DNA of 64,000 nt from a virus. Lineage: Duplodnaviria; Heunggongvirae; Uroviricota; Caudoviricetes. The stretch spans positions 77,246 to 141,245 of the IMG/VR virus record IMGVR_UViG_3300013936_000013; one strand, written 5' to 3'. This document shows positions 12,386-64,000 of the stretch, piece after piece (the first letter of the stretch is position 1; each line of letters starts with the position of its first letter). The notes under the pieces are model-generated. The model had not been told where the DNA came from. It was given only the letters and a program-made list of their open reading frames with translations, and did no database searches. The position numbers and the translations under genes were made by a program.

Positions 12386-12419
12386 TTAATATACGATAGA
12401 GTGCGCTACAAGCATCTCA

Positions 12420-45177: not shown

Positions 45178-46857
45178 ATGCCAACAAACAATGAAAATAT
45201 TGCGGTTCTTTGGTAGGGTAAAAGCTGGACAGTTCTTGACAAAATTTTAAAGCAAATGAATAATGATATTGCGGAGGTAGCAGCTCAAGTGAATACGGGT
45301 TTAAATGCTCTAGTTGCTTCTCAGTTTGCAGCAGCTAGAACTGGTAAAGTTTTTACAACTAAGTTTCCACGATATGAAATTTCAACAAGTCCAACTGGTA
45401 TTAAGATGGATGATAATGAAGGCATGGTATGCATCCCTTCAACTCCTACTTCTAAGAATACTAATGACTATGAAAGTGAACCAATGTTCCAGATTTTGGA
45501 ATGTAACTGGGAACTAGATAATGCGGGTAATATTAATATTACTGCAATTAAAGGTTTGAACAGTGAGTTCGCTCGTGATGGCTCAAATGGACAAGTAGGT
45601 ATTATTAATATGCCTTGGTATGTAAAGAGCTGGGAAGATGAAAATTACTGGTATATTTCAGTATCTGATACTCAATATTCTGGTTATCAACCTCTTGGTG
45701 AATGCATTAAACCAGATGGTAGTCTTCAGGGCTTTATGGTTCATGCTAAGTATGCTATGGTTGAGATTGAGGGTAAGCCATATAGCGCTTCTGGCCGTAG
45801 ACCATGCGCGGGAGGACAGCAACCTACTAATGTTTTTCATGTAGAAGGTGGAGACGATGTAACAGAGAAACCTACTATTGTAGCTCCATCTTATAGTGGA
45901 TTAATTAACTATTGTCATAAGCATAGTAATTTCTATTGTGCAGAAACTAGTAATGATGTTTTCTTTATGCAATTACAGTATATGATTAAATATGCAACTT
46001 TAAATTCACAGAGTGTATTGAATGGTTGTTTTAATTATAGCTATAATTATAAATGCACCGTTGCAGAAAAGAAAACTAGAGGTATTATTATTGCCACATC
46101 TAATGCTAATAATCTAGTAGTTGGTTCTACTTGCTCTATTGGTACAGTAAGTGGAGATAGATATTATGCCACTCAAAATGATATTCTATATAGCAGAAGA
46201 ATTAGTAAGATTGAGCAGTATGATGCTAGTAACTCTAAAGTTTGGTTTGAAACTGATTTGCCTGAAGGTTATAGTTTTGATACTGACACTACTTATTATT
46301 TAATTACAATGCCTTGGTATACTGGTAGTTGTGATAATGTTTTAGGTATGGATGGTTCTGCGGGTAATCCCACTAATGGTAAATATCCTGCTCTGATTGG
46401 TGGTATGGAATATTTTGTAGGTGGATTTGAAACCTTGGGCAATGTAGTAATGGACATTCAAGCAGAAGAAGGTTCTACTGTTCGTCGTGATTTCTATATT
46501 GCGCATGATGCTACTATTCTCACTACGGATATGACTATTGTTAAGTCTAAGTTTAAAAAGAGTAAATATACTCGACCTGGTTATGACTTCTGGATTGCTA
46601 AGCATGGTATTGATTTGGATAATGGAATGATGATTCCTACTTTAGGTGGCGCTTCTGACCATACCGGATTCTGTGATTATTCTTGGGCGGATTAGGCTAC
46701 TAGTGGACAGAGAGAAGCTCTATTCTTCGGGCGTCTGGGCTATGGCTCCTGGCGTGGTGCTTGGAGTCTGGATGCGGACGGTGGGCTCGGGCTCACCGGG
46801 TGGAATCTCCTCTCCCGTATAAGCCCGAATGGTATGTATGGAAATTTAAGCACTTAA
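45178..46857 (+). CDS. DGR target protein (559 aa) with C-terminal variable region; 2 in-frame TAG
   Basis: AAAGGAG RBS + ATG 45178; TAG at 45217 and 46693; VR lies in the last 55 codons; stop TAA 46855. Confidence 0.7.
46724..46816 (+). repeat. DGR variable repeat (VR)
   Basis: 93-bp match to TR with 16 mismatches, all at positions that are A in TR. Confidence 0.8.
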
Positions 46858-46875
46858 AACAATAGGAGGTAAGTT

Positions 46876-47229
46876 ATGGTAGAATTAAGATCTTGTGAAA
46901 AACAACCTGAATTCTAGTACTTTCCTCTCCCTGACACTGATTTAGCAGATGTAATTATTTGTCGCAATGAAAGAACTGAAGAGGTAGAAAATTCTAATGG
47001 ATTAGAGTCTAATGAAAAAAAGATTACAATAATGTATGTTTATGACTCTAATTCTTTTAGAACAACTTTGGACAAATCTGTTATAGAGGAAAACTTAGAT
47101 TTTTATATTAATTATGAAGAGACAAAACCAGATTATCCAAAAGAGATTGATGATTTGAAATCTCAATTAATGGATACTCAAATGGCTTTATGTTCTATTT
47201 ATGAAGCGATGGAGGCGCTAAGTTCATGA
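46876..47229 (+). CDS. avd: Avd-like DGR accessory protein (117 aa); 1 in-frame TAG
   Basis: AGGAGG RBS + ATG 46876; between VR and TR as in canonical DGRs; identity by position and size only. Confidence 0.45.
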
Positions 47230-47345
47230 TTATGGCAAAAATTTATTACAACTTAATCAAGAATGGTCTAAAAACCATCGATGATGTGCCCGAAAAATTG
47301 CGGGCAGAGGTCCAGAAGTTGCTGGACAAAGATAAGAAAAACTAA
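47226..47345 (+). CDS. hypothetical 39-aa protein
   Basis: ATGA overlap with avd-like gene; MIMAKIYYNLIKNGLKTIDDVPEKLRAEVQKLL. Confidence 0.3.
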   Translation: MIMAKIYYNLIKNGLKTIDDVPEKLRAEVQKLLDKDKKN

Positions 47346-47414
47346 TTTTAATAACAATACAAACTTTTGATTAAATAATAAATAGCAAAAAATAAGGTTT
47401 TATACTTCGAGAGG

Positions 47415-47507
47415 TCTTCGGGAATCTGAACAATGGCTCCTAGAGTGGTGCTTGGAATCTGAATGCGAACAATGGGCTCGGGAACACCAGGTGGAATATC
47501 CTCTCCC
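47415..47507 (+). repeat. DGR template repeat (TR)
   Basis: A-rich copy of VR; in target frame encodes many AAY codons (AAT AAC AAT ... AAC AAT). Confidence 0.8.
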
Positions 47508-47511
47508 TTTT

Positions 47512-47578
47512 CTCTTTTGAGTTTAGAATATCAAAAGAGTACTGGCGGCTATAAGCCGCCAGTATATTTTTGTTTTTT
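47512..47578 (+). terminator. two hairpins immediately 3' of TR, second GC-rich with T-run
   Basis: ctcttttga...tcaaaagag and tactggcgg...ccgccagta followed by tatttttgtttttt. Confidence 0.5.
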
Positions 47579-47777
47579 ATATGTAGCTTTAGATATTCTT
47601 TTAAAGTATAAAACACCCTAAAAAGGTCTTTGCTTAGAGTATTTTACTCGAAATTTGCAATGATTAATCTAGTTCCATTGGAGGACTAGTTATAATGAGG
47701 TCAGTAAATTATTATCTATTAGAAAGGATGATGATTAAAAGCGTTGTTAATTAATCAAAAGAGAAAGAAGGCTAGCA

Positions 47778-48980
47778 ATGGCAGTTCACTCTTACTGCAA
47801 GAATAAAGACATTTCAGATGTCAAGTTTATTTATTATTGTGCAAAAGATTGTTTACATGATAAATGGCGTCGTGATGACGTAGTAAGATTTTTAAACGAA
47901 TATAACCCATTGTTCACTAGAAGACAGATTCTCGAACAAATTAATAAGGATAAATCTGTATTTGACTCAACTTTAATGAGAGTCGCAGAAGAACTTAGTA
48001 ATGAAATAAAAACAAAAACAGTCCACTTTAGACCGATTCGTTATAAAGAAAAATATGATGCTAATTCCAAAAAATTAAGGATTATAGGCATCCAATCTGT
48101 TAAGTAGCAAATATATGATTATGTTGCGGTTAAAGGTGCCCAAGAAATGTGGGATTGCAAAATTGGTTATTACCAGTGCGCATCACTGCCAGGCCGCGGT
48201 CAAGTATATGGTAAAAGCATGATTGAAAAATGGATACGTTCTCCAAAAACAAGAGACAAATGTATTTATGTTGTTAAAGGAGATATTAAAAAATGCTATC
48301 CTTCAGTATCTATTCCAATCATTAAAAAACTATTGAAAAAAGATATTAAAAATGATGATTTACTATATCTAATATTTACTTTAATAGATTCTTTTGATAG
48401 AGGACTATCAATAGGTTCCTATCTTAGTTAGTATCTCTGTAATTATTATCTTTCTTATGCTTATAGCTATATGGATAATGAATTAAGAAGATATTATTCT
48501 TTTAAATTATTTTATATGGATGACTTCATTATGATTGGCGAAAATAAAGAATAGCTTGTTAAAGCTATGCAGAAATTCATTTCTTATATAAAAGAAAAAT
48601 TAGATTTGACAGTAAAACCAAACTGGGAAGTCTTTCCTATTGATTATATAGATAGCCACAAGAAACGGCATGGTAGACCCATAGATATGATGGGCTATGT
48701 TATTTATCGAGACCACACAACAGTTAGAGCTTGTATTTTTCTATCAATTAGACGTTCTTATTTGCGTGCGGCTAAGCGATATGTTGATGTTAGACCTAGA
48801 AAAAGGATACCTGTGGAAGCTGCCCATAGATGCGTTTCTTATTTTGGATGGCTAAAGAATTCAAGCTCAGGAACTTTTATATTTAATTATAATGTAAAAG
48901 TAATTTTTTCCTTAGCTAAATGGTCGGTTTCTAAATTTAATAGAGACAAAAATCAATGTTCTGAAAAGCGAGGTACATAA
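47778..48980 (+). CDS. DGR reverse transcriptase; 3 in-frame TAG
   Basis: ORFs 47778..48107, 48147..48431 and 48567..48980 share one frame and are joined by TAGs; motifs RIIGIQ, YVVKGDIKKCYPSV, LSIGSYLS[TAG] (DGR GxxxSQ hallmark) and YMDDFIMIG. Confidence 0.8.
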
Positions 48981-50214: not shown

Positions 50215-53200
50215 TTATTTCTTGCCAACAAAAATTGCAAAAGCGCAAGGGAAGTAAGAGTAAGCTGGATAGTTACTATTCCATTTACCTTCGCTATTGA
50301 CTGCACCGAAGCCATTAGGATAACTAATGAACTCTTGATTATCTTCATCTACATACTCAATATATGTAGAAGCTAACCAATAGTGCTAATTATCTATATT
50401 AACAGCTTCTTCTGGACGTCTACGAACTCTTGAAGGATCGTCAGTAAAGACTGCAAAAGTAGAACCTTCTTGAGCGTAGATTGGATATCTATCAACATCC
50501 ATTGCAATCTTAGAAATTTCTGCATTATTTGGAATCCAAACTTTATCCATATCAGTAATGAATGTAGAAGTATTATTCATTTTAATTGTAGTTCCAGTAT
50601 TACTGTTACTCCAATAATCATTAAAGAACTTTTCTTCATCAGACTCTGCGGCTAAGCTAGTTCCGCCAGTTACCTGAATTTCAGCGTAGTTACCAACTGA
50701 GCTCTTACGAGATTTAGGACTGATAACTGCCTGAACTAAACCAGGCAATAGATTATAAATATCATTATTAGCAATATCTCTTAGCTCACTGTACCACCAA
50801 CCGCCATTATTCCAAGATTCTCCTTTTAAGAAAGTATTGATTCTAACAGTTGCTCCTTTAACAACAGGGATTGTTAATGTTGCATCTTCAGTTAGCTCAG
50901 TAAAGCCTGCGGCGTTCCATACTGCGTCGCCATTATTCTTAGTCAAAGTAACTCCAGAAGATAGCTTAGATTGAGTTAAATCATAAACAACAGAAGTCTC
51001 ATCTGGAGAGGTAACTGTAATCTTTGTAAGTAATGGACGACCTAATCTATCTACATTATTAAAAGTTGGAGCAATAGTTACAGAAGTAATATCTTCAGTA
51101 TGCTCATATACGAAATTATCACTATCAGCATCAATATTACCAATTTTATAGCAATATGCTTTTCTTTCTTGACTATTCATTTGATATGCTTTCAAAGATA
51201 GCATATTAGTCAATAGAGTGATACCAGAAGCAGACATATCGGTTAGAACCAGCTGTTCTGTTTGTTTTACACCACGCTCATCAGGATTTAAAGTAACACT
51301 CTTACCCTAACCGAGCTTCCAACCATAGTCTGAATAACTCTTCGTACCTGCGGTGACCGTGTTAACTACCGCTTGGATCTAACCCCAAGAGCAATCAGAG
51401 AACTCCATGGGCTCTGCACTAGGTAGTTCAATCTTAGAAGCAACTGCAAAGCAGTAGATGGTACCATCAACCGCATTAACGCTTAGAGACTCCATATTAT
51501 CCAAAGAAGCAAAGTTTTCAGGGAACTTAAAGGTATCTGTTCTCCAACCAGGCACTCTGACTATTGTCCATCCACCTTTTAGCCACTTGCTCAAATCTTC
51601 ACCCTTTAACGGGTCTTCAACTGTGCTCATATTTACATTAGCTCCATATGCTATTGCAGTAGAAGGATTACCAGAAGCATCTTCTTCAGTACCTGTAATA
51701 GAGAAGTATGGAGTTGCAGAATTTAGATTTTTAACAGCTGTATCATAATCCTGTTTAAAGAAATAAATGTTATAGTGACGTAGCTTAGGTGTATAAGTTG
51801 CAGTTAAAGTGCGGTCTTCAGTTACTTTTAGATAACTACCGTTCCAAGAGCTATAATAATAATTGTACTGAGCATCTGTTGGTTTAGTAGGAGTATCAAT
51901 TACCACATAATCTAATCCACCAAAATTATTTGGGTCATATGCTGTTCCATCTGCATTATAACCATTAAAGTTGATTGGATTATAGCCATCTTCTCCACCA
52001 ATAATTTGATAAGAACATAAAGTAGTTCCATCATAATTCTTAAATGTTACGGTATATAGATGACGACCATATAGAATACTAATATTAGGCATATAGCGTT
52101 TATAAGCTGCCATCGCCGCATCTTCAATTTGAGCAACATCAATAGTACCAGAAATGTATGGATTAGTGTTACCATTATAAATGATACCAGCTTCATCCAA
52201 TCCTTTACAGCTTAAAAGTTGGTTAAATACTTCTTCACCATTGCCATCAAGATGCCATTGAATATCAATTAATCTCAAAGTCTAAAGGTTCTTAGCTTGT
52301 TTGATAATATTTACCAATAGCTAGTCTGCAGATGGATCACATTCCTCAACTGTAATAGTTGAAAGACTATCATAACCTTGCAAGGTTAATACGCTCAAAT
52401 GCGATAGATTCTATAATTTAATATTAGTAATTGTTTTAGGCAATTTTAAAATCTCAATATTGCTATTAGCTGCAAGAGTGACAGAAGGAATATTAGTATT
52501 CTCTGCATAGAAGTATCTTAATGCAATACAGCTATTTAGTCCAATAGTAGTGTTTAAATAGGTTAAACCAGTTAGAACAATCTTCTTTAATAGATTACTA
52601 TTAAAGGAAATGTTAGTACCGTTAGCCCAAGCATTATTTTCATAACCTTCAACTTCGCTACCTAATAGAACTTCTTGCAATTTCTTAGCTTGAGAAATAT
52701 CCAACCAACTTAAATACGCGGGAGCCAGGTCTCCTAAGCTAGTAATCAGAGATGCATTGTAGACATAAGTCTCAACACCGCCAGAACCAGTTGAAGTAAA
52801 GTCAGGAGCTTTAACTGTTGTAGGAACTCCTCGCTTAGCTTTTGTTCTAATATAATCACCATTGCCATATTTTACTAAGATATACATATCAGAGTAAGGA
52901 GTAATAGTTAAATCTTGGTTAGGTGCAACAACTTTATTTTCAGTAGGCTTAGTGATACGCATCTGAATAGCATCGCCTACTGCGGTTGGACCTTCATACT
53001 TAGAACTCATATAGCGGTCTTGATAGAATAAGAACCAGTCACGTTGTAGTTGCTTATTTCCTAGCATCATAGAAATATAAGTTCTATCATTATCATTTAA
53101 GTATGGATTGATATATTTCTTAAACATATCTTCAATCCAAATAGCTTCACACCAGTTAGCTTGATAATCAGAGAATTTTTTACTTAAACGAAATGCGTTA

Positions 53201-56200
53201 AATGCACCTTCATTTTCTTTCTCTTGAACCATTTTCTTGATATCATCAGCAAAGCATTGTTCTAGATTAATCCATAGAACTGAGTCTTCGCCACCATATG
53301 CTTCACTACCATCGCGATATTCAATACCATAACTATGGCTTAAACGACCAATGTTATCAATACCGAGAGCAGTATCATTATCGTAGTCATATTTAAAGTG
53401 CCAATGTTTACCATCATCAGTTGCCATAAATACGTTTTTAGCACGGTTATCAACCATCAGATGACGTTCAGTAAAGATGTCTAGCCAAATGGCAGAATCT
53501 TTGATAAAATAATCTTCAAATTCAGCTTTAAATTTAGCTAATCTATATTCAGCAGTATCTGCGGTGTAGGTTTTTCCATCATAAACAACAGCCTAAGGTA
53601 GCGTATTACCTGTAGCCGCCGCAGTATCAGTTGAATTAACCCAAGCTACAACTCTATGCAGATTGTCAATATCAGTTTGAGTATAGCCTTTCTTTGGAAA
53701 TCTAAATTCAAATCCTTCTTCCCAAGCATCGTTACTAAAATCTGCAGATTTAAAAGAACAAAGGGCAGATTCATTAGTCAGGAACTCAACGCAGCATTGC
53801 TCAGGATATTTACTTCTATCTTGACCGAAAACATTATAATTAGTTTTATCATTATTCATGTTTGCTTTTGCATAGAAAGTTAATTCAGGGTTAGGGTCTG
53901 CTGTATTTCTATGGAAAATAATGATAGGTTGACCTTCAATGGTGCCACGAATTTTATTGGTAAAACCTTGATTGTGAAGTTCAGTAATTAGCTCATCACG
54001 TTGAGTTGTGCGGTCAGCCTTAGGCTCATAGCCTTTTGCCGCAGCCATTTCAAGCAATTCATCAAGCTGAGGATCAGAGATGTAAGGATCATAAATATTA
54101 TATTCATCTGTCAAAAGAACATTATTTGCCCCTTCAGAAGAAGCAACGTCAACTTTCATACAGAAGTAATCTACACCCAAACTCTTATCAGATATTGCAA
54201 AGGTGGCTTCTTTAGCTCCTGTGTCTGCATGATTAAAACCATCAACTTGGAAATCCATATTTAGGTTTAGAGCTGCTCGACCATAACCCGCAGAAGAAGT
54301 ACCTTGCATACCAATACCAACATTTTTAGAGGTGAAACTCTTTCTGTTGTTATTAGGATCTACATAAGTAACATCGCCACGAACAGGCGGATTGTTTCTA
54401 TCTTTAATTTTAGAAGTAGGGAAAATAAATGGATACTGACTAGAGTCAGAATTAATAATCATATATTTAGACTGTAATTTATCAAGAACAATGTTATGAT
54501 AAGCGTCATATATATTATTTCTCTGATAACGAGCAATAATTTCATCAGATGTTGGAGCATCAAGAATAAAATTATTTAAGACTTCATATTGGTCAAGAAC
54601 TTTATTGTAAGTCTTAATTAAATAAACATCTAAGTCACATTCAGAAGAACCTAGAGTAATACTAACAGGATTAGTCTGAATGAATAAGTCGTCATTCTCA
54701 TAGATTGCGGCAGAGCAAGGAATACCTTGTAGATACCATAGAATCAAACTCTTTTGAGTTGAAGGATAAACAACTAAATCCATTTCAATATAAGAATCTT
54801 CCTTATAAGGAACTTCCATTTCAATATCACGAGAATTAAAGACACCGCGGTTGGCAAATAATCTTAAACCAACATTACTTGATTCATCAAAACAATTAAT
54901 AATTTCAGTATCATAGTTAATACTATTTCTGCACTTAAAAATCATTTTAATTGCTTTACCACTATTTTTAAAGTCCTATCCAAATAGTTTTAGTGGAATA
55001 GTAACTTTATCATTACTTGCCTTAATTCTTAGGACTGTTGCTCCATCTTCATCAGACTACCAGCCACCATTAACCCAGTCAAAGCTAGTTGGGAACTCAG
55101 TAGAATAGCCATTAGAAGTCCAAGAATTATAATTAGACTGCGCATTACTTCTACCAACAGCAGAAAAGTTTGCTTCAAGACTATTTGTAATAGGTTTAGC
55201 ATCAATTTCAAGTGCATTGACCTTCAATTCAATAGTTCTAGATTGAGTACCACATCTAATAATTAAGCGGCGGGCGTAGGTATTAGTAAACTTTAAGGTC
55301 CAGTGTTGTAAAGTTCGATCTGGATTAATAGCAATTGAACTAGCTCTTACCCATTCACCTGCACCATCATTAGCGTCAGTATTAAAATACCATTCTTCAA
55401 GTGAACACTGTCTATTATTGTTATTATTAGCTGTACTGTAATTTGGATCCCAGATTAAATAAGGGATAGAAACATTATCATATTCAGTAACCTCGGTCTA
55501 AGCAAAAGAAGAAGCAATAATAGGAGTTCCATTACCGCGACTAACAAAGATAATTTCATAATATAGTTCATTACTAATTAACTCTGCGCCATTTAAATTT
55601 GCGGTGACCCAGACTTTTAAAGGATATGCGCCATGTCCTTTGAAAGGAATATCCTGAGTTGAAATGCCACCAGAAGTAGAACTGATAATATCTTTAGACC
55701 AAATGACAGTTTTATTAGTTCCTGCGGAATACAATTCAAAGTGTACTGTCTTTTCAAAGCTACCGCCCGCAGTTACAGTATAGGTGAAAACCGCATTATC
55801 ATAGTATGCTTGATAGGCGTTAAAAGTAGAAGTCAGTTCTAGAGATACTGTTGTAATAGTCCATCTTAAACTTCTTACATTACCAGCATTATCAGTTAAA
55901 ATAACCTGAACTGAGTTACTACCACGAATTAGAGAATCAGTAATATCATAAGAATAATAACCTTGAGTTACATTAGTATTCTAATCTACTTTAACTCCAT
56001 TAACATTGATAACAATAGAACCATTGCCTGTTGATGCTCCATCGTCACTATATACAGAAGACCAGTTAAAACCAATATAAGTTTTTTCTTCACCTTTGTA
56101 AATAGTAGTCATGCTTGACGGAATCTCTGGGTCGTAGGTCATTTTGAAAGTAATACCATTACCGCCAGAACCGCCACCTGTACCTTCAATAGTAATAGTA

Positions 56201-56793
56201 CCTAGGGGAACCGCATCACCTTTTTTATACCATGAAAGCTCATGTGTAGTATTATCAAATTCAATATCTAAGTCTTCAAGAGCATTTAGATTTGCTACTG
56301 TTTCTTTTAATGCGGCGAGGTCATCGGCGGAAGCATAGTTAGGTAAAATACCATTAACTTCATCCTTAGTATAATAACCAGATAAGTCGGTCGCAATGGA
56401 TACACCACCAGTAATTCTTTCACCATTGCTTAGTAGATAGAATTTACTATCATCATCAATTTCATAGCCATCTGCTTTCTTTTGGGTGTTCTAATCTAAA
56501 GTATCTAGATAATCTAGAATTAGACTCAGCTGAGTTCTAACTGCAGTACCCGCAGATGTATATTTTTCGCCATTAAATTTATCAAATTTTTCATTAGTTA
56601 AGCCTTGACGAATATCCTCTAGTTCAGTTTGGCGATTATTACTTGAAAAAGTAGGATATTTAGTTAAAAGATTGTCAACTCTATCATTCAGAGTCTTCAT
56701 TGAATCTGACAGATTTCCGCCAGTCTCACCGACATATTCTTTGTTTGCTTCTGCTAGTAGGCGCAAGGCTTCTACAATAGATATTTTACTCAT
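50215..56793 (-). CDS. giant 2192-aa structural/adhesin-like protein (Ig-like and LRR-like regions; probable tail fibre or host-recognition protein); 12 in-frame TAG
   Basis: ORFs 56491.., 55498.., 53593.., 52411.., 51379.., 50386.. all share one frame; every gap between them was translated by hand and holds only TAG codons, no TAA/TGA; TAA in-frame just upstream of ATG 56793; stop TAA 50215. Confidence 0.7.
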
Positions 56794-57404
56794 ATCTGTT
56801 TACCATAGACCTCCTATAACATTTGTTTTACTTCAAGGTCATCTACAAAAATTAGCTCAAAACTCGCAGAATCTTTAATTTTTTCCATGTCATCTACATC
56901 AGGATTATATAATCCATCGCCAATAGAAAGATTAGTATTGATTGTAGAATTCCACCTATAACATTCTGTATTAGTGGTAGTATCTACATCAATAAAAATT
57001 AAAGAAAATTGAATGCGACCAGGAGCAGTAGTAATTGAGCCTTTAATTATCCAAGAAAATTCAACCATATCAGGATTATCTTCCATGACTTGCATATCCT
57101 CAATTGGGTAGAATCCATCTACCTTAGCTCCCGCATTATACCATTTTACTAATTTAGATGAACATTTTAAAATATCATATCCATCAATAAATCTAGGGCA
57201 ATTAAAAGTGATTGCATTAGAGTTATGGTCTGTGCGGATACCTACAACAGAATGAAATCCAGGCTGTAAAGTAAATGTACGAGTTAATGCATCTACAAGG
57301 ATAGGCGGTTCCTCATCTTGGAGAAAATTAGAAGTATCATTATTTATAATAGTGTCAAGACTTTGAGTAGAAATATCATTGATTAGTGATAAATAATCTG
57401 TCAT
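56790..57404 (-). CDS. hypothetical structural-module protein (204 aa); 1 in-frame TAG
   Basis: AAAAGGAGAG RBS + ATG 57404; reads through TAG 56814 to TGA 56790, overlapping start of giant gene. Confidence 0.5.
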
Positions 57405-59542: not shown

Positions 59543-60043
59543 TTAACGACGATTGATAACATCATAATCCATTTCAGTATCAAATGGCATCACAATAGAG
59601 ACATTCTTACCATAATTCTCAGAGCGACTATCATTCTTAGCTGCAGCAACATCATGCTCCAACTCAGCATCAAGCAGCATTGCAGCAAACTCATTTGCGG
59701 CAGGATAACAGTGAGCCATTGCGGCAGCCATATCCTTATGATAACTACGAAGCAGCCGCTGACGTGCAACCCGCATACCCTCAGTCAGATTGAACTCATC
59801 ATCTGCTGCGCAATAAGCAACGCCATGATAAGACTCTTCCATCGCGGGGACACCATGCATAAAAATAACGCCGACTTTATCGCCAAGAGCTCGAATCTTA
59901 TTCCAAGCATCCGACCGAGTATTCTTCATAACTGCGGTAACAATGCCCTTATAAGGATAGCCATTAAAAATACCAGTACGTTCTGCATCATAGTAATAAC
60001 CAATCTTAGAACCATTACGGGGTGCAATATAAGTCATAGCCAT
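59543..60043 (-). CDS. hypothetical protein (166 aa) in GC-richer island
   Basis: Intact ORF, GC-richer. Confidence 0.4.
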   Translation of the reverse strand: MAMTYIAPRNGSKIGYYYDAERTGIFNGYPYKGIVTAVMKNTRSDAWNKIRALGDKVGVIFMHGVPAMEESYHGVAYCAADDEFNLTEGMRVARQRLLRSYHKDMAAAMAHCYPAANEFAAMLLDAELEHDVAAAKNDSRSENYGKNVSIVMPFDTEMDYDVINRR

Positions 60044-60075
60044 AATTAAATATTTCTCCTTTTATCTCTTAAAAA

Positions 60076-60489
60076 TTACTGCATCATTTTTGCAATAACA
60101 GAATTAATCATCTTACCGTCCGCCTTACCCTTTAGAGCCTTCATAGCAGGCGGAATTACCTCTTTCTTATTCATGGACTTAATATCTGTAAACATTTCAG
60201 AAATAAAATTCTGAATTTCATCTTCAGACATCATCTTAGGAAGGAACTGAGAAACAAAAGCAATCTCAGATGTAAGTGCGGTTTTCTCAGCTTCATTGCG
60301 CGCATAGCCTAAGGTCTCCCGCAATGCCTTAACTTCTTTTTGGAAAGTTGCGATTACTTTTGCTTCATCACCACCATCTTTAATTACCTTCTTAGCTACT
60401 GACAAAAAGTAGCTTGCATGATTTTCAACCTGCTTATCACCGCTCTTTAGAGCTGCAATCCGCATTTCATTTAGAGTATCAATAATCAT
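60076..60489 (-). CDS. yqeY: GatB/YqeY-domain protein
   Basis: 137 aa, all-helical with KALRETLGYARNEAEKTALTSEIAFVSQFLP...AMKALKGKADGKMI pattern typical of YqeY/GatB C-terminal domain. Confidence 0.5.
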   Translation of the reverse strand: MIIDTLNEMRIAALKSGDKQVENHASYFLSVAKKVIKDGGDEAKVIATFQKEVKALRETLGYARNEAEKTALTSEIAFVSQFLPKMMSEDEIQNFISEMFTDIKSMNKKEVIPPAMKALKGKADGKMINSVIAKMMQ

Positions 60490-60512
60490 TTTTCTGTTTT
60501 CCTTTCCCTTAT

Positions 60513-60540
60513 TGTATATATATTATAACATTTTTTTAAG
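60513..60540 (-). promoter_or_regulatory. conserved TGTTATAATATATA promoter
   Basis: Plus attgtatatatattataacatttttttaag. Confidence 0.5.
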
Positions 60541-60689
60541 AAATAATCAATAAGTAATTTTTAGACATAAAAAAATGAGCAAAAATTTAAATCAATATTA
60601 GAAATAAATCCTTGCTCTATTGTTTAAAAGAACAAGATAACCATGAATCCAAAACCAAGCGGATTAATTGCTGTTGTTATCTTTACTAT

Positions 60690-60764
60690 TGGAGCAACAG
60701 ATGGGAGTCGAACCCACATCATCGACTTGGAAGGACGATGTACTAGCCGTTATACGACTGCTGC
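60690..60764 (-). tRNA. tRNA-Gly (anticodon UCC), CCA encoded
   Basis: Acceptor GCAGCAG/CTGTTGC, T-arm GTGGG-TTCGACT-CCCAT, anticodon loop CTTCCAA; one mismatch in anticodon stem. Confidence 0.55.
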
Positions 60765-60884
60765 ATATCTAGCGAATTACGTATCGCTAATGCGGATTGA
60801 ACTCCGGTAGTCCGCACGAAGATTCATCAGGTAAGAGAACCCGCAACCTTTGATACTCTTTTATCTCTTAATCAAGTATCCTGT

Positions 60885-60961
60885 TGGTGCTGGAGATAGG
60901 ATTTGAACCTACGGTCTATGGATTACAAAGCCATTGCATTAGCCAGCTATGCTACTCCAGC
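60885..60961 (-). tRNA. tRNA-Thr (anticodon UGU), CCA encoded
   Basis: Acceptor GCTGGAG/CTCCAGC, D-arm GCAT/ATGC, loop TTTGTAA, T-arm GTAGG-TTCAAAT-CCTAT. Confidence 0.6.
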
Positions 60962-61070
60962 ATATAAAAACAAGAGACATCAAGTAAAAGCAAACTTGTA
61001 ATTAATAAATATGGAGCTTTAATTTTGAAATTGCTGTACGTCTCTTTTAATATTTCACTAGGCTTTTATT

Positions 61071-61141
61071 GATATTGTTTGGACTCGAACCAAAAATCTT
61101 AGATTTACATTCTAATGCTATACCCATTTAGCTACAAAGGC
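61071..61141 (-). pseudogene. degenerate tRNA-like element (anticodon loop ATGTAAA = GUA, Tyr-like) with poor acceptor pairing
   Basis: Good D-arm (GCTA-AATGGGTA-TAGC), anticodon arm (TTAGA/TCTAA) and T-arm (TTTGG-TTCGAGT-CCAAA), but acceptor strands GCCTTTG vs CAATATC pair at only 4 of 7. Confidence 0.3.
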
Positions 61142-61186
61142 GAAGCCGCCTACCTTATTTTGCTGTAAAAGCCTATTATTTAATTT

Positions 61187-61540
61187 TTAATCTTCAAACA
61201 GATAAGAATAAGCATCATAGTCGAAGCCATAATTCTCACAAATTTCTTTTAATTCATCGAGATTATGAATTTCTTTTGCCCAGTACTGAATCCAAGATTC
61301 AATAGCATCCATATAAGCATCTTCCAGTTCAGATTCTCGATAATCTTCTGAAAGACCATACTCTTCTGGATTATCCATAATCATTCCTCTGTCAGGAAGA
61401 CCATGATAGCCTTCATAAGACTGATAATCTTCAATAGCACAATCATATGCGGCTTCGGTTGCTTCTTCCACAGACTCAAATTCTGCGATGTCATAAACAC
61501 AAGGTTCATTACAAGAACCAGCAAAAAGAGCAAAAATCAT
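61187..61540 (-). CDS. highly acidic hypothetical protein (117 aa)
   Basis: Intact ORF, Asp/Glu/Tyr-rich. Confidence 0.4.
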   Translation of the reverse strand: MIFALFAGSCNEPCVYDIAEFESVEEATEAAYDCAIEDYQSYEGYHGLPDRGMIMDNPEEYGLSEDYRESELEDAYMDAIESWIQYWAKEIHNLDELKEICENYGFDYDAYSYLFED

Positions 61541-61563
61541 ATTAAAACCCTTTCTTTTATGCG

Positions 61564-61638
61564 TGGAGCGGTTACAGAGAATCGAACTCTGATCTAGTGC
61601 TTAGAAGGCACTTGCCTTGTCCTTTGGGCTATAACCGC
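61564..61638 (-). tRNA. tRNA-Arg (anticodon UCU), CCA encoded
   Basis: Acceptor GCGGTTA/TAACCGC, anticodon stem AGTGC/GCACT, loop CTTCTAA, T-arm CAGAG-TTCGATT-CTCTG. Confidence 0.8.
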
Positions 61639-61643
61639 AAACC

Positions 61644-61847
61644 TTAAACGTGAAAAACGTAAATTGCTTTTTCGCTCAAAGGAGTAACGGTAGTAAATAC
61701 TTTTACAATTTCACAATCGGAAAAGTAATCATAAGCATCTCTTCGAGCTTCCTCTTTTGATTCTGCAAAAAGAATTACTTTATGAGAAGTAGTATTATAT
61801 TTATCATTAATACGCGAACGAGTAACAAGAAAAACTTGATAAAACAT
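61644..61847 (-). CDS. hypothetical small protein
   Basis: AAGGAG RBS before second ATG (61847). Confidence 0.35.
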   Translation of the reverse strand: MFYQVFLVTRSRINDKYNTTSHKVILFAESKEEARRDAYDYFSDCEIVKVFTTVTPLSEKAIYVFHV

Positions 61848-62035
61848 TATATCTCCTTCAAACAATCATTAATTCGCTTAACATCTACATCAGTTAAGTC
61901 ATCCTCGGAAAAACGATATGCTCGAAGAATATCTTGTACAATTTCTTCTGCATATTCTTTTGAGTTTTTTCTAAGAGCTTTAATAATCTGATTAGTAATC
62001 AAATTACTCTCTTGCATATAAGCTATATTTATCAT
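61847..62035 (-). CDS. hypothetical small protein
   Basis: AAAAGGAG RBS + ATG 62035; longer upstream ORF start would overlap tRNA-like element. Confidence 0.35.
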   Translation of the reverse strand: MINIAYMQESNLITNQIIKALRKNSKEYAEEIVQDILRAYRFSEDDLTDVDVKRINDCLKEI

Positions 62036-62044
62036 ATAGACTCC

Positions 62045-62102
62045 TTTTAATAGCGGTAGCACGAAGAATTGAACTCCGGCTACTAGCGTATTAACCACTC
62101 TA
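62045..62102 (-). pseudogene. truncated tRNA-like element (58 nt; acceptor + D-arm + T-arm, no anticodon arm)
   Basis: GGTAGCA...TGCTACC acceptor, D-loop AGTGGTTAA, T-arm CGGAG-TTCAATT-CTTCG, but only 9 nt where the anticodon arm should be. Confidence 0.25.
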
Positions 62103-62194
62103 CTATGCTACCACATAAAAACAAGATGAATATTTTATACATATCTTTTTCTTGTAAGAATTATAAATATTATATTGCTGTATTCATCTTTAAC

Positions 62195-62268
62195 TGGTTG
62201 AGCCAGCAGGATTCGAACCTACGATGGAGGAGTCAAAGTCCTCAGCCTTACCACTTGGCGATGGCTCA
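62195..62268 (-). tRNA. tRNA-Gln (anticodon UUG), CCA encoded
   Basis: Acceptor TGAGCCA/TGGCTCA (U1-A72), anticodon stem GAGGA/TCCTC, loop CTTTGAC, T-arm GTAGG-TTCGAAT-CCTGC. Confidence 0.8.
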
Positions 62269-62274
62269 ATATAT

Positions 62275-62346
62275 AGGACTATTTGGATTCGAACCAAAAA
62301 ATACTTGTGTCAGAGACAAGTGCCTTAACCATTTGGCAATAGTCCT
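62275..62346 (-). tRNA. tRNA-Gln (anticodon CUG)
   Basis: Acceptor AGGACTA/TAGTCCT, anticodon stem ACTTGT/ACAAGT, loop CTCTGAC, T-arm TTTGG-TTCGAAT-CCAAA. Confidence 0.75.
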
Positions 62347-62418
62347 TCAAAACAAAGCTAGATTTATTTTTAATCAAGCTATTAAAATATTTTTAATTGC
62401 AGTTCTAGCTTTTAGATA

Positions 62419-62517
62419 ATGGTTGGGGATGAGAGACTCGAACTCTCACACCATCCGTCAGAGGGATGGGCTCTGGTGGTTTTAGAGACCACTGCTTTAA
62501 CCGTTAAGCAAATCCCC
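62419..62517 (-). tRNA. amber-suppressor tRNA (anticodon CUA), tRNA-Gln-like acceptor, ~96 nt (99 with encoded CCA), with 28-nt extra region
   Basis: Acceptor TGGGGAT/ATCCCCA (U1-A72, as in tRNA-Gln), D-arm GCTT-AACGGTTA-AAGC, anticodon stem GTGGT/ACCAC, loop CTCTAAA (U33, CUA, A37), then 28-nt insertion containing hairpin CCATCC-CTCTGAC-GGATGG (Gln CUG-type loop), T-arm GAGAG-TTCGAGT-CTCTC, A73, CCA. Confidence 0.7.
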
Positions 62518-62682
62518 ATTATCTTTATTTCTCTTAGATTGCTTTGCGTTATATCGCTTAGCCGCCTTGCAATTTGAACATCCATGTTTATTTTTGCAAT
62601 AACAAAGACAATAATCTTCTAACCAAAAATGGTATGGAATTGAAGGTTTAATTTTACGACGAGGAATCTTTTTACCTTTCAT
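62497..62682 (-). CDS. hypothetical basic Zn-ribbon protein (61 aa), overlaps 5' end of suppressor tRNA by ~20 nt
   Basis: Intact ORF with CxxC...CxxC; reality uncertain because of tRNA overlap. Confidence 0.25.
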   Translation of the reverse strand: MKGKKIPRRKIKPSIPYHFWLEDYCLCYCKNKHGCSNCKAAKRYNAKQSKRNKDNGDLLNG

Positions 62683-62726
62683 AATTTTATTATACCTTAT
62701 TTTTTATGAAAAATCAATTTTTCTAT

Positions 62727-62800
62727 TGGCAGGTCTACTCCGAATCGAACAGAGACACGATGTTTTGGAGACATCAGTACTACCATTATACGATAGACCC
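62727..62800 (-). tRNA. tRNA-Trp (anticodon CCA), CCA encoded
   Basis: Acceptor GGGTCTA/TAGACCT, anticodon stem GATGT/ACATC, loop CTCCAAA, T-arm CTCTG-TTCGATT-CGGAG. Confidence 0.75.
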
Positions 62801-62857
62801 ATAAAATGGGGAACCAACCGAAGCCAATTCCTTGAAAGCATTTCTGCTTTTGTGCAC

Positions 62858-62935
62858 TGGTACTTCTGAAGGGACTTGAACCCTTAGAAAAGTTGAGTTT
62901 GAATCAACCGCGTCTGCCAATTCCGCCACAGAAGC
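62858..62935 (-). tRNA. tRNA-Leu (anticodon CAA), short variable arm, CCA encoded
   Basis: Acceptor GCTTCTG/CAGAAGT, long D-loop GAATTGGCAGA, anticodon stem GTTGA/TCAAC, loop TTCAAAC, T-arm AAGGG-TTCAAGT-CCCTT, A73. Confidence 0.65.
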
Positions 62936-62938
62936 ATA

Positions 62939-63012
62939 TGGAGGGCAGCCGGGGAGTTGAACCCCGCTCCTTGGATTAACAGTCCATTGCACTACCGATG
63001 TGCTAGCCGCCC
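62939..63012 (-). tRNA. tRNA-Asn (anticodon GUU), CCA encoded
   Basis: Acceptor GGGCGGC/GCTGCCC, D-arm GCAC/GTGC, loop CTGTTAA, T-arm CGGGG-TTCAACT-CCCCG. Confidence 0.7.
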
Positions 63013-63022
63013 AAAATGAGGT

Positions 63023-63160
63023 TTATGTAACCTCAAAATCAAGAACAATATAATTGCGCTGGTAAAAATTCAACTCAATCAGAGTATGAACTACACACCA
63101 ATGCTTGGTGTTATAATCATCAAGGTAAATAATAGTGATAGTCAAATTAGCAGTAGTCAT
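63023..63160 (-). CDS. hypothetical small protein (45 aa)
   Basis: AAAAGGAG RBS + ATG 63160; terminator-like hairpin gaggtt-acataa-acctc at its 3' end. Confidence 0.3.
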   Translation of the reverse strand: MTTANLTITIIYLDDYNTKHWCVVHTLIELNFYQRNYIVLDFEVT

Positions 63161-63202
63161 AAACAAACTCCTTTTTAACTTTTCTATTTGTTTTCCTTTA
63201 TT

Positions 63203-63230
63203 ACATATATATTATAACATTTTTTTAAGA
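63203..63230 (-). promoter_or_regulatory. conserved TGTTATAATATATA promoter
   Basis: Plus ttacatatatattataacatttttttaag. Confidence 0.5.
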
Positions 63231-63251
63231 AAAAATCAATAGATATTTTTC

Positions 63252-63596
63252 TTAACGCCTATAAAAGTAAGGATACCAATACTTTTTAAGAAATTCCTCT
63301 TCAGACAGAGCCGCCATTTTTTCATACCATGACCATCCTAAAGTTTTTGCTTTTTCACAGTAGCTAGCATATCTAGCTTTTGCTTCATCAATAGACTCAT
63401 AAGAGATATAATCAGTAATATCCCAAGAGTCATTAAACTTTTGATAATCATTTTTTGCGCGAGGAGCGGTTTCCTCAGCTTCTATGCTTCTATTAAGCAC
63501 ACGTCTATATCGCCGATTAGCTCGGATTCGCGCTTCTTTATTACTGCCATGCCGCGGATGCTTACAAATAGGATGTTTCTTATAGCTTCTACTCAT
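63252..63596 (-). CDS. hypothetical basic protein (114 aa)
   Basis: Intact ORF, Arg/Lys-rich N-terminus. Confidence 0.4.
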   Translation of the reverse strand: MSRSYKKHPICKHPRHGSNKEARIRANRRYRRVLNRSIEAEETAPRAKNDYQKFNDSWDITDYISYESIDEAKARYASYCEKAKTLGWSWYEKMAALSEEEFLKKYWYPYFYRR

Positions 63597-63613
63597 AGTA
63601 CCCTCTCCTTTTA

Positions 63614-63688
63614 GTATGTCCTTTGAGACTTGAACTCAAACTCTATTCCGTATGAAGAAATTGCATTAACCAATTATGCTAAGGACAC
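63614..63688 (-). tRNA. tRNA-Met (anticodon CAU)
   Basis: Acceptor GTGTCCT/AGGACAT, D-arm GCAT/ATGC, anticodon stem ATTTC/GGAAT, loop TTCATAC, T-arm TTGAG-TTCAAGT-CTCAA. Confidence 0.7.
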
Positions 63689-63879
63689 ATATTCAAGGCG
63701 AATATATAATCACTAGTCTTTTAATTAAATCATTAATATTAAAAATATCAGTACATTATGTTATATATTTGCTGTATTCGCCTTATTTTCAACAAGACCA
63801 TTAATATTATTACATCTTCTTAAATCCCAAATTTAATGATTTTTAATAAATAATATTTTGCTGTGATGGTCTTTACTAC

Positions 63880-63954
63880 TGGGGGTGAGTAAGAGAATCG
63901 AACTCTTATGAAAGGAACCACAATCCTCCGTTCTACCATTGAACTAACAAACCC
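63880..63954 (-). tRNA. tRNA-His-like (anticodon GUG) with extra 5' G and two acceptor-stem mismatches, CCA encoded
   Basis: D-arm GTTC-AATGGTA-GAAC, anticodon stem GAGGA/TCCTT, loop TTGTGGT, T-arm AAGAG-TTCGATT-CTCTT, C73 with possible G-1; acceptor GGTTTGT/ACTCACC has U-C and U-U mismatches. Confidence 0.45.
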
Positions 63955-63971
63955 ATAAGACTAAAACGTCT

Positions 63972-64000
63972 TGGTAGAATGTGTCAGATTCGAACTGCTC
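63972..64000 (-). tRNA. partial tRNA (3' half only; cut by window edge)
   Basis: tgg-t-agaatgt-gtcag-attcgaa-ctg... = CCA, acceptor, T-arm CAG..-TTCGAAT-CTGAC. Confidence 0.4.

Follow-up and report, generated by a model that had tools for sequence, protein, structure and literature searches.

In systems where GlnRS or TrpRS reads the anticodon, a tRNA whose anticodon reads a stop codon is harmed in its own charging, which is a long-recognised obstacle to the reassignment of codons in nature and to the engineering of suppressor and orthogonal tRNAs. Two classical suppressors of E. coli, supE (tRNA-Gln CUA) and su+7 (tRNA-Trp CUA charged by GlnRS), illustrate both the attraction of GlnRS by U35 and the upset of identity that follows an anticodon change (PMC9976931). 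They share the CUA anticodon and Gln insertion with the suppressors of code-15 phages, although each carries just a single-base change in its anticodon and no structure that compensates for it. Suppressor tRNAs from code-15 crAss-like, Lak and Phass-1 phages (PMC10607447, PMC9523058, bioRxiv 10.1101/2021.08.26.457843) resemble the tRNA described here in lying within a phage tRNA array, in carrying CUA with TAG assigned to Gln, in their Gln-like acceptor and in the concentration of in-frame TAG in a subset of genes. Most of those described are class I molecules of 72-76 nt, whereas the tRNA analyzed here is 99 nt long, and in the published code-15 suppressor descriptions consulted there was no mention of a variable arm or of an anticodon-like second hairpin.

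The literature searched offered an engineered analogue of such an arm, but nothing on a natural tRNA that has a pseudo-anticodon arm; the original prediction likewise knew of no account of this architecture. Mukai (2020) constructed an amber-suppressor allo-tRNA whose variable arm copies the sense anticodon arm of tRNA-His (GUG), a design meant to recruit an anticodon-binding domain while CUA decodes and reported to enhance aminoacylation and specificity in E. coli reporter assays (PMC7590224). That molecule is synthetic, is built on a 9/3 scaffold and depends on a HisRS to which a second, heterologous anticodon-binding domain has been joined, whereas the phage tRNA is natural, has 7/5 geometry, presents Gln (Trp in relatives) and has no modified synthetase known. 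Copies of an anticodon stem-loop bound through the same identity nucleotides are also found in the E. coli thrS operator and in yeast synthetase mRNAs (PMC9976931), but these regulate translation of the synthetase mRNA, lie outside tRNA and have no role in aminoacylation. Class II tRNAs and allo-tRNAs (PMC5389517) likewise have a long helical variable arm between the anticodon and T arms. The phage tRNA differs from them in its class I D arm, its 7-nt arm loop with U33', A37' and a sense anticodon, its long linkers, its 7/5 geometry and its Gln assignment.

The window (the whole 64,000-nt stretch of phage DNA that was analyzed) contains this suppressor tRNA on its minus strand, with the features listed in Table 1. 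The locus had been predicted at 62419-62517; the locus itself stood, and ARAGORN moved both ends by one position. The length of 99 nt includes the encoded CCA (96 nt + CCA by ARAGORN). Rfam RF00005 scored 55.5 bits, where the gathering score is 29, and aligned over the full model (1-71), placing 25 inserted nt in the variable region. All four standard arms (acceptor, D, anticodon, T) are present, and the molecule belongs to this family. Manual checking of the sequence gave a 5' half of UGGGGAU UU GCUU-AACGGUUA-AAGC A GUGGU-CUCUAAA-ACCAC CAGAGC and a 3' half of CCAUCC-CUCUGAC-GGAUGG UGU GAGAG-UUCGAGU-CUCUC AUCCCCA A CCA. ARAGORN labelled the gene 'tRNA-???' with anticodon uaaa, an odd call which arose because the anticodon stem was slid by one register; both the Rfam model and RNAfold favored the 5-bp anticodon stem with CUA. 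The decoding loop has U33 and a purine at 37, as for the amber suppressor class, and its A36-A37-A38 is the context seen in tRNAs whose codons begin with U.

Table 1. Features of the two-hairpin suppressor tRNA and its neighbors, in window coordinates.
Feature	Position	Strand	Evidence
Suppressor tRNA(CUA) gene, whole, with pseudo-anticodon arm	62420..62518	-	ARAGORN, Rfam RF00005, five-arm MFE fold
Acceptor stem 5' strand UGGGGAU	62512..62518	-	pairs with AUCCCCA 62424-62430; covaries in subfamily (helix 1)
D arm GCUU-AACGGUUA-AAGC, 4-bp stem + 8-nt loop	62494..62509	-	sequence, Rfam, RNAfold
Decoding anticodon arm GUGGU-CUCUAAA-ACCAC	62476..62492	-	Rfam alignment, RNAfold
7-nt loop CUCUAAA; CUA anticodon	62487-62481; 62485-62483	-	
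5' linker CAGAGC, joining the hairpins	62470..62475	-	identical in divergent relative L079
Pseudo-anticodon arm, 6-bp stem + 7-nt loop CUCUGAC	62451..62469	-	sequence; covariation in relatives
Pseudo-arm stem CCAUCC / GGAUGG	62469-62464 / 62456-62451	-	
Pseudo-arm loop; CUG	62463-62457; 62461-62459	-	
3' linker UGU	62448..62450	-	sequence
T arm GAGAG-UUCGAGU-CUCUC	62431..62447	-	Rfam, RNAfold, covariation
Discriminator A73 (62423) + encoded CCA (62422-62420)	62420..62423	-	sequence
tRNA-Gln(CUG), anticodon loop CUCUGAC	62274..62346	-	ARAGORN, Rfam
tRNA-Gln(UUG), loop CUUUGAC	62195..62268	-	ARAGORN, Rfam
YqeY-like protein, free-standing, beside tRNA array	60076..60489	-	Pfam PF09424, E = 1.3e-10

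Most of what had been read from the letters was borne out by these programs and by the manual check: predictors accept the locus, CUA lies in a 7-nt loop among canonical acceptor, D, anticodon and T arms, the second hairpin is a perfect 6-bp stem whose loop matches the anticodon loop of tRNA-Gln(CUG) exactly, tRNA-Gln(CUG) and then tRNA-Gln(UUG) are adjacent, and the tRNA body is Gln-like. Two statements required correction. The figure of 28 nt given for the insertion holds for the variable region as a whole, while the net gain over the usual loop of 4-5 nt is about 23-24 nt. The suggestion of two mutually exclusive folds is wrong for secondary structure, since the minimum free energy structure by RNAfold is a five-arm cloverleaf with both hairpins present (-35.5 kcal/mol, z = -2.87). 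Removal of the CUA arm in silico left a canonical tRNA-Gln(CUG), and removal of the pseudo-arm left a canonical tRNA(CUA); the ambiguity is which hairpin takes the anticodon-arm position in three dimensions. The final U of the 3' linker (position 48) could form a Levitt pair with A15.

With respect to identity, the weak U1-A72 pair followed by G2-C71 and G3-C70 is Gln-like by E. coli GlnRS rules (PMC9976931), and the discriminator is A73, as it is in both tRNA-Gln genes of the phage, rather than the G73 of those rules. Among long-arm CUA tRNAs the 1:72 pair was weak or mismatched in 43/49, G2-C71 was present in 42/49 and G73 in 37/49. The decoding anticodon provides U35 but has A36, and a C-U-G is supplied by the pseudo-loop, which has the same sequence as the anticodon loop of tRNA-Gln(CUG) from this phage and is conserved while the pseudo-arm stem covaries, the true anticodon being CUA. 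In having a helical variable arm longer than 10 nt (a 28-nt region with a 6-bp stem) the molecule is like class II; the class II identities Leu, Ser, Tyr and Sec do not fit, with TAG read as Gln, a D stem of 4 bp with an 8-nt loop that is of class I type and unlike a class II D arm, and an arm loop of 7 nt rather than 3-5. Rfam assigned the relatives to RF00005 and not to tRNA-Sec. An allo-tRNA (8/4 or 9/3 acceptor/T) was rejected on the 7/5 geometry, and tRNA-Pyl, a label which ARAGORN gives to CUA tRNAs, on finding no 3-nt variable loop, small D loop or 6-bp anticodon stem. An intron (at 37/38 with a bulge-helix-bulge motif, or of group I) or a processed insertion was rejected on position and size, as the extra 23-24 nt follow position 43, and Rfam gave no intron match in 60000-64000 at E <= 1.

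The window carries 62 in-frame TAGs across 64 code-15 ORFs, which by construction end in TAA (50) or TGA (14) and never in TAG. One minus-strand ORF (50215-56799, about 2192-2194 aa) has 12 in-frame TAGs, and others were counted in genes for an endolysin (8), a GIY-YIG protein (8), a reverse transcriptase (3) and NrdD (1). For the endolysin-like ORF (32706-33389), Q stood in 116, 83, 83 and 77 of 120 homologues at four of the seven TAG positions examined, against a background of 3%. TAG is a sense codon in the window phage, and the alignments show it to stand for Gln. There are weak hints of a host in the Clostridia/Bacillota; a survey of 28 Firmicutes found GlnRS in 10 (PMC3927822).

Relatives of the window tRNA were sought by scans without any loop constraint. 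The pseudo-arm stems of the resulting subfamily were CCAUCC/GGAUGG, CUACGG/CCGUAG, CCGCGG/CCGCGG and AUGCGG/CCGCAU, with compensatory changes on both sides at all 6 pairs, and U33'-C-U-G was retained in 4/4; the observed covariation was reached by 0/500 shuffles. The hairpin is no accident of this one locus. A motif requiring CCTCTGA was found at 62 viral loci, and in 596 Gb of bacterial genomes the same motif gave only 2 genuine tRNAs together with 9 non-tRNA chance matches. The pseudo-arm tRNAs are shown to be restricted to phages, and we regard the pseudo-anticodon feature as beyond chance because of its recurrence in phages, its scarcity in bacteria and the covariation of its stem. A viral scan for the linker plus UCUG returned two further loci (L167 and L168), which were non-tRNA chance matches.

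Among distinct long-arm CUA tRNAs, a set that includes loci originally picked by the CCTCTGA-requiring pattern, the best hairpin with a 7-nt loop was centered on CUG or UUG in 19/40 (expected 3%, P ~ 2e-18). U35' and G36' were present in 19/19 of these CUG/UUG-centered arms, no arm of the long-arm CUA tRNAs was centered on CCA, and the UUG variants CUUUGAA and UUUUGAG were seen at loci that had been found by other means than the motif. The feature is far from uniform. Ordinary class I tRNAs made up 80/135 distinct phage CUA suppressors, most CUA-family pseudo-arms had only 2-4 bp, and the largest CUA subfamily had a weak arm, RNAfold favoring a CCUCU/GGAGG register with a GAA triloop. Relative L401 has the same architecture, yet its pseudo-loop holds CUA, and no sense anticodon was found at the arm tip of L110, L113, L166 or about half of the UCA set.

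A parallel for Trp had been set as a test beforehand, and for this purpose UCA (opal) suppressors were collected by a complete, loop-unbiased scan which yielded 101 loci. The test succeeded. A hairpin centered on CCA, the Trp anticodon, was shown by the arm of these phage suppressors in 29 of 64 distinct long UCA arms (expected 1.6%, P ~ 3e-35), with U33'-CCA in 29/29 and A37' in 27/29. The UCA-type pseudo-arm has exactly 5 conserved stem pairs, each represented by 4-6 pair types, and a 7-nt loop. No YUG-centered hairpin was present among the 64 distinct long UCA arms; YUG was confined to CUA tRNAs and CCA to UCA tRNAs (Fisher P = 4e-10 and 4e-8). ARAGORN labelled the UCA relatives 'tRNA-SeC' because the long helical variable arm resembles that of class II.

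We think it rather probable that the pseudo-anticodon arm is a natural device which restores or raises synthetase recognition of tRNA(CUA). Both the Gln and the Trp systems rely on the anticodon as a major identity element (PMC9976931). GlnRS uses U35 and G36 as identity and binding elements, of which a CUA anticodon loses G36. In the proposed mechanism the CUA arm would decode UAG on the ribosome, while the variable region, rebuilt as a second hairpin in the shape of an anticodon arm and displaying the U-CUG-A of tRNA-Gln, would restore or raise recognition by a candidate host GlnRS. Reading of the pseudo-anticodon by a synthetase is our inference, and so is the placing of the two arms. With a class I synthetase bound to a tRNA of canonical L shape, the variable arm of that tRNA is directed away from the anticodon-binding domain, and the model therefore needs either flexibility of the arm or its exchange. 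In a first version the flexible, long-linkered arm would be bound directly by the anticodon-binding domain; in a second the hairpins would swap under the D stem, so that the synthetase would see tRNA-Gln(CUG) and the ribosome tRNA(CUA). Two-headed tRNAs may work by such an exchange of the hairpin stacked on the D stem. Pairing of CAGAG in the linker with CUCUG in the pseudo-loop, as a pseudoknot, was rejected, as its connectors would be only 0-2 nt and UCA relatives are without such complementarity.

The broader proposal is that phages with reassigned stop codons have evolved two-headed tRNAs, with a sense-anticodon head (YUG for Gln, CCA for Trp) for the host synthetase and a stop head (CUA or UCA) for the ribosome. 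Nature would thereby have a general solution where the demands of decoding clash with those of aminoacylation identity, a clash that limits codon reassignment. This proposal may hold or fail about equally. The pseudo-arm is not obligatory, because class I CUA suppressors are common and phage CUA tRNAs are reported as substrates of E. coli GlnRS in a study in which 213 phage suppressor tRNAs were tested (PMC12636597). If the proposal is true, the address for the synthetase has been separated from the address for the ribosome, as evolution's way round the charging obstacle, and nature would offer its first example of an idea tested so far only by engineering. It would also explain the mislabelling of many long phage tRNAs by ARAGORN ('???', Pyl, SeC) and provide a ready template for suppressors that insert Gln or Trp efficiently and for genetic-code expansion.

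The sequence-specific conservation of the loop implies that something reads it and leaves the reader unspecified, so that the hairpin might bind another molecule that recognizes Gln or Trp loops, as a decoy for, or shield from, an anticodon nuclease of the host, a titrator of GlnRS, a modification site or a handle for a phage protein. We consider this unlikely. A nuclease decoy inside the suppressor would destroy the suppressor, and the strict matching of CUA with YUG and of UCA with CCA is predicted by aminoacylation identity but not obviously by evasion of defence. The candidate nearest to hand is the YqeY-like protein encoded beside the tRNA array, whose family comprises the GatB tail and the tRNA-Gln-binding domain of Deinococcus GlnRS (PMC1865053 describes YqeY as a tRNA-Gln-binding domain family), and which is a possible accessory of the suppressor tRNA. 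A role as partner specific to two-headed tRNAs was not supported, its homologues having been found only in near-identical phages and in one phage (L404) in which the gene is syntenic and the Sup(CUA) is an ordinary class I tRNA.

Less likely again is that the Gln-charged tRNA decodes with both heads, reading UAG by CUA and CAG by CUG, which would be harmless as both codons mean Gln. Either arm alone completes a canonical cloverleaf, the pseudo-arm has the dimensions of an anticodon arm (6 bp here, 5 bp with a 7-nt loop in the UCA type), and U33' and A37' are conserved. However, tRNA-Gln(CUG) and tRNA-Gln(UUG) are already encoded next door, the 2-4 bp of most CUA-family pseudo-arms are too short for an anticodon arm in the A site, and the conserved positions are synthetase identity bases rather than the whole loop. 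In the coding sequences of the window, CAG adjoined TAG in 0/62 cases on each side, a count which excludes only the simultaneous reading of the two codons. An ordinary class II-like arm, serving Ser, Leu or Tyr identity or stabilizing the fold, with its likeness to a Gln loop a coincidence or a relic of duplication, is strongly disfavored and very improbable: SerRS and bacterial TyrRS do use long arms as identity elements, A73 with CUA resembles a supF-type Tyr suppressor and some arms, named above, show no sense anticodon, but TAG aligns with Gln and not Ser, Leu or Tyr, the D arm is of class I, the loop has 7 nt against 3-5 with linkers of 6 and 3 nt, and the loop triplet is kept while all stem pairs change and tracks the anticodon.

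As to origin, the original prediction held that the suppressor was born by duplication of a Gln anticodon arm, which cannot be shown for this tRNA. The stem of tRNA-Gln(CUG), CUUGU/ACAAG, is unrelated to both GUGGU/ACCAC and CCAUCC/GGAUGG, so that nothing is shared beyond the loop and a recent duplication of the neighboring arm was rejected. The feature is an old one with a wide distribution and does not go back to a recent event at this locus. For the two-headed class as a whole, duplication of the arm is plausible because the inner pairs are the same in both arms of many UCA-type relatives. That the window tRNA is one member of a general class, with a Trp/opal parallel, had not been noticed in the original prediction. 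No close relative of the window was found by megablast of the tRNA region or of 25 kb against the phage collection; only through a distant blastn match was Phass-1 reached, in which the variable arm of the annotated 88-nt 'tRNA-Sup-CTA' (OQ749652.1, 62445-62532) contains CCCUCUGAAGGGG.

The flagged feature, an amber suppressor tRNA, is real, conserved and phage-specific, and the observation is confirmed. Its sequence is UGGGGAU UU GCUU-AACGGUUA-AAGC A GUGGU-CUCUAAA-ACCAC CAGAGC CCAUCC-CUCUGAC-GGAUGG UGU GAGAG-UUCGAGU-CUCUC AUCCCCA A CCA. The original prediction had described this structure correctly and had placed it one base off, at 62419-62517. The gene scored 55.5 bits against the Rfam tRNA model (gathering score 29), with 25 inserted nucleotides assigned to the variable region by the alignment. 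In the minimum-free-energy fold by RNAfold both hairpins form, giving a cloverleaf of five arms (-35.5 kcal/mol, z = -2.87). ARAGORN labelled it 'tRNA-???' with anticodon 'uaaa' because the anticodon stem was slid by one register; a 5-bp stem with the 7-nt loop CUCUAAA is the better solution. The claim of a second hairpin with a Gln(CUG)-type loop was borne out by the sequence, as a perfect 6-bp stem carries a loop, CUCUGAC, that matches the anticodon loop of the neighbouring tRNA-Gln(CUG) at every base. Removal of the variable insertion in silico left a 76-nt tRNA(CUA), and removal of the CUA arm and linker left a canonical 75-76-nt tRNA-Gln(CUG) whose variable loop, at 3-4 nt, is normal; since either deletion gives a tRNA, secondary structure alone cannot name "the" anticodon arm. 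The decoding arm is the CUA arm, because the genome needs a UAG decoder and two ordinary Gln tRNAs adjoin. The linker CAGAGC is complementary to CUCUG of the second (pseudo-)loop, and was kept in the window and in a divergent relative, L079, though every neighbouring stem pair differs.

Table. Positions of the features described in the window and in related contigs
Feature	Sequence	Position	Strand	Remarks
tRNA array (ARAGORN)	Window	60690-63953	minus	12 genes
Amber suppressor tRNA(CUA)	Window	62518-62420	minus	99 nt including encoded CCA
Linker CAGAGC	Window	62470-62475	minus	
tRNA-Gln(CUG)	Window	62346-62274	minus	adjoins suppressor tRNA
tRNA-Gln(UUG)	Window	62268-62195	minus	next after tRNA-Gln(CUG)
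tRNA-Tyr(GUA)	Window	61070-61141	minus	72 nt
tRNA-Leu(CAA)	Window	62858-62935	minus	78 nt
tRNA-Asp(GUC), deleted copy	Window	62054-62112	minus	13-nt deletion
tRNA-Asp(GUC), intact	L001	10169-10243		
YqeY-like gene (PF09424)	Window	60076-60489	minus	free-standing
ORF of about 2192-2194 aa	Window	50215-56799	minus	12 in-frame TAG, zero TGA
Diversity-generating retroelement	Window	45178-48980	plus	
Retroelement reverse transcriptase	Window	47778-48980	plus	
Retroelement template repeat	Window	47415-47507	plus	
Retroelement variable repeat	Window	46724-46816	plus	3' end of ORF 45178-46857
tRNA with CUA in both loops	L401	3739-3835	minus	
tRNA(UUC), long variable arm	L404	3580-3672	plus	93 nt
Opal two-headed tRNA	L223 (IMG/VR)	290-382		example among L180-L390
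Opal two-headed tRNA	L199 (IMG/VR)	1370-1464		example among L180-L390
Opal two-headed tRNA	L240 (IMG/VR)	12376-12468		example among L180-L390
OLE RNA, partial match	L184	7338-7576	minus	105.6 bits
tmRNA	L184	8434-8873	minus	

TAG is clearly a sense codon in part of the genes of the window, the G+C content of which is 34%. The longest ORF in the Table, the product of which is probably a tail fibre or acts in host recognition, is whole only with TAG read through; code 11 breaks it into five pieces in the same frame. In-frame TAG codons were also found in the genes for an endolysin-like protein (8), a GIY-YIG protein (8) and a reverse transcriptase (3), and in another ORF (7). Replication functions comprise DNA polymerase III alpha, DnaB, NAD-dependent ligase, GyrA, GyrB, NrdD and a PhoH-like protein, and no in-frame TAG was present in the replication genes. 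In total, 62 in-frame TAG codons were counted across 64 window ORFs, of which 50 stop at TAA and 14 at TGA. The endolysin-like protein (Peptidase_M15-type plus PG_binding_1) was aligned with 120 homologues, and seven of its TAG positions were examined. Four of them were occupied by glutamine in 116, 83, 83 and 77 homologues, over a glutamine background of 3%; the remaining three were variable polar sites. TAG therefore means Gln, a reassignment also reported in the gut phage Phass-1, a distant relative, and in other code-15 phages (PMC10607447). Weak hints point to a host within Clostridia/Bacillota, some lineages of which possess GlnRS (PMC3927822).

A metagenome scan fixing only the anticodon arm and linker recovered ten tRNAs of the window's own subfamily. 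Four were copies of the window sequence, three carried CUACGG[GUCUGCU]CCGUAG (the form also found in L079), and the singletons were CCGCGG[GUCUGCU]CCGCGG, AUGCGG[GUCUGCU]CCGCAU and an outlier, L401. The five-arm structure was paired in 95% of alignment cells, the observed covariation was reached by none of 500 shuffles, and U-C-U-G of the pseudo-loop was invariant among Gln-type members. The original prediction had named as refuting evidence any homologue without the insertion or with one decaying and not covarying; within this subfamily there was none, and all six pseudo-stem pairs had changed on both sides. L401, from soil metagenome contig Ga0134126_10000048, shares the architecture and linker of the window tRNA, has acceptor G1-C72/U73 and the pseudo-loop UUCUAAC, and departs from the sense-anticodon rule.

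An essentially identical tRNA gene was present on three IMG/VR contigs. In Phass-1 two suppressors lie side by side, one a class-I tRNA of 72 nt and the other, of 88 nt, with CCCUCUGAAGGGG in its variable arm. The pattern GGTCTCTAAAACC N{4,20} CCTCTGA matched 62 viral loci. Across 596 Gb of genomes from bacteria and archaea it matched 11 times; nine were not tRNAs, and the two genuine tRNAs lay on short MAG contigs that are rich in tRNA genes and look like phage contigs. We conclude that the class is specific to phages and that the motif arises by chance at a negligible rate. A scan fixing only the CUA anticodon arm and T loop gave at least 120 matches, and among those listed two populations were seen, class-I tRNAs versus tRNAs with 20-33-nt gaps. 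Arm tips of the long CUA tRNAs found without the motif, among the matches listed (UUCUGAG, UUCUGAA, CCCUGAA, UUCUGCA, GUCUGCU, CUUUGAA and UUUUGAG), have one or other of the two Gln anticodons, CUG and UUG. When the best 7-nt-loop hairpin was taken per distinct long arm, the central triplet was YUG in 19 of 40 (3% expected, P ~ 2e-18), the 40 including loci first found through the CCTCTGA-requiring pattern. All 19 had U35' and G36' (primes denote the pseudo-loop), and their three loop-proximal pairs were always canonical, with several pair types. The largest CUA subfamily has a weak arm for which RNAfold prefers a different register, and a few long-arm CUA tRNAs bear unrelated variable arms.

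It was set beforehand that if the hairpin shows a sense anticodon to the synthetase, Trp opal suppressors should display CCA, and UCA suppressors do show CCA. The first opal scan gave 19 tRNAs of 94-98 nt with anticodon UCA and variable-arm loop CUCCAAA, which differs from their true anticodon loop, CUUCAAA, only at position 34. A loop-blind complete scan with GGTCTTCAAAACC N{6,36} GGTTCGA yielded 101 loci, 82 of them long-armed. The best 7-nt-loop hairpin was CCA-centred in 29 of 64 distinct long UCA arms (1.6% expected, P ~ 3e-35), with U33'-C-C-A in 29/29 and A37' in 27/29. Exactly five pseudo-stem pairs were conserved (93-100% canonical, four to six pair types each), the next two being canonical in 55% and 41%; about half of the long-arm UCA tRNAs have unrelated arms. 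Neither CCA among CUA tRNAs nor YUG among UCA tRNAs was found (Fisher P = 4e-10 and 4e-8). The UCA molecules, labelled tRNA-SeC by ARAGORN, were assigned by Rfam to tRNA and not tRNA-Sec, and at the acceptor they have A1-U72 together with G73, which is the identity set for Trp in bacteria (PMC9976931). Phage UCA genes of 94-98 nt with a 5-bp, 7-nt-loop U-CCA-A hairpin, the anticodon loop of tRNA-Trp, are a large class. A phage contig with such a two-headed tRNA (stop anticodon in one hairpin, sense anticodon in the other), L184, also has a tmRNA and a partial OLE RNA match. In L404, a phage syntenic with the window, the long variable arm of a tRNA(UUC) forms the hairpin UAACA-GUGA-UGUUA.

GlnRS recognises pairs 1-72 and 3-70 with N73 at the acceptor end, and also pair 10-25, U35 and G36; for TrpRS the determinants are G73, the first pair and C34-C35-A36 (PMC9976931). 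A change from CUG to CUA, or from CCA to UCA, loses one identity base. Long-arm CUA tRNAs, with a weak or mismatched 1:72 in 43/49, G2-C71 in 42/49 and G73 in 37/49, otherwise look like GlnRS substrates. Because an identity base is lost from an otherwise GlnRS-like body, we propose that the second hairpin may act as a pseudo-anticodon arm, restoring the determinant lost from the decoding anticodon. It could reach the anticodon-binding domain as a swinging arm, or the hairpins could trade places beneath the D stem; linkers of 6 nt and 3 nt would permit either, those of class II tRNAs being much shorter. Recognition of the second hairpin by the synthetase is the best-supported reading and, judged from sequence comparison, a reasonably probable one. 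The window tRNA is one instance of a general design common to Gln-amber and Trp-opal suppressors. Less probably, the pseudo-loop is read by something else, for instance a phage protein, a modification enzyme or a defence nuclease, but such a reader gives no reason to expect each stop anticodon to be matched so strictly by its cognate sense anticodon. If the same tRNA decoded CAG as well as UAG, no harm would follow, both codons meaning Gln; such a dual role is unnecessary in the window phage and implausible for short-stemmed members, and we regard it as improbable. The reading of TAG as Gln, the D-arm type of the window tRNA and a triplet conserved over covarying stems all contradict the view that the arm is an ordinary class II one or left over from an old duplication.

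Suppressor tRNAs of recoded phages are well known (PMC10607447). Assays of 213 such tRNAs in E. coli extracts, described in a 2025 preprint, gave Gln for CUA and Trp for UCA (PMC12636597). A variable arm or second anticodon-like hairpin is unmentioned in the searchable suppressor-tRNA texts; most subscription journals lie outside that search, and an earlier description is possible. Natural anticodon-arm mimics occur in mRNAs, for example the thrS operator (PMC9976931), and none within tRNAs is known from the same searchable literature, again with most subscription journals outside it. The pseudo-anticodon arm of Mukai 2020 (PMC7590224) was engineered: the allo-tRNA bore a GUG arm, which served to recruit a HisRS with an additional anticodon-binding domain fused to it.

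The YqeY-like gene flanks the tRNA array and is syntenic in L404, a relative with 44% identity. Its family is kin to the tail of GatB and to the appendix with which Deinococcus GlnRS binds tRNA-Gln; in that enzyme the YqeY domain raises affinity for tRNA-Gln, and does so only in cis (PMC1865053); a specific tie of the gene to two-headed tRNAs was looked for among relatives and not found. Within the array, the deletion in the tRNA-Asp(GUC) copy takes out the anticodon stem-loop, and the copy scored 44 bits with the Rfam tRNA model and received no ARAGORN call. Both tRNA-Tyr(GUA) and tRNA-Leu(CAA) are without a long variable arm. Such an arm is the norm in bacterial Tyr and Leu tRNAs. The variable and template repeats of the retroelement are 83% identical, with mismatches at template adenines, and in-frame TAG codons lie within both its reverse transcriptase and its target gene.
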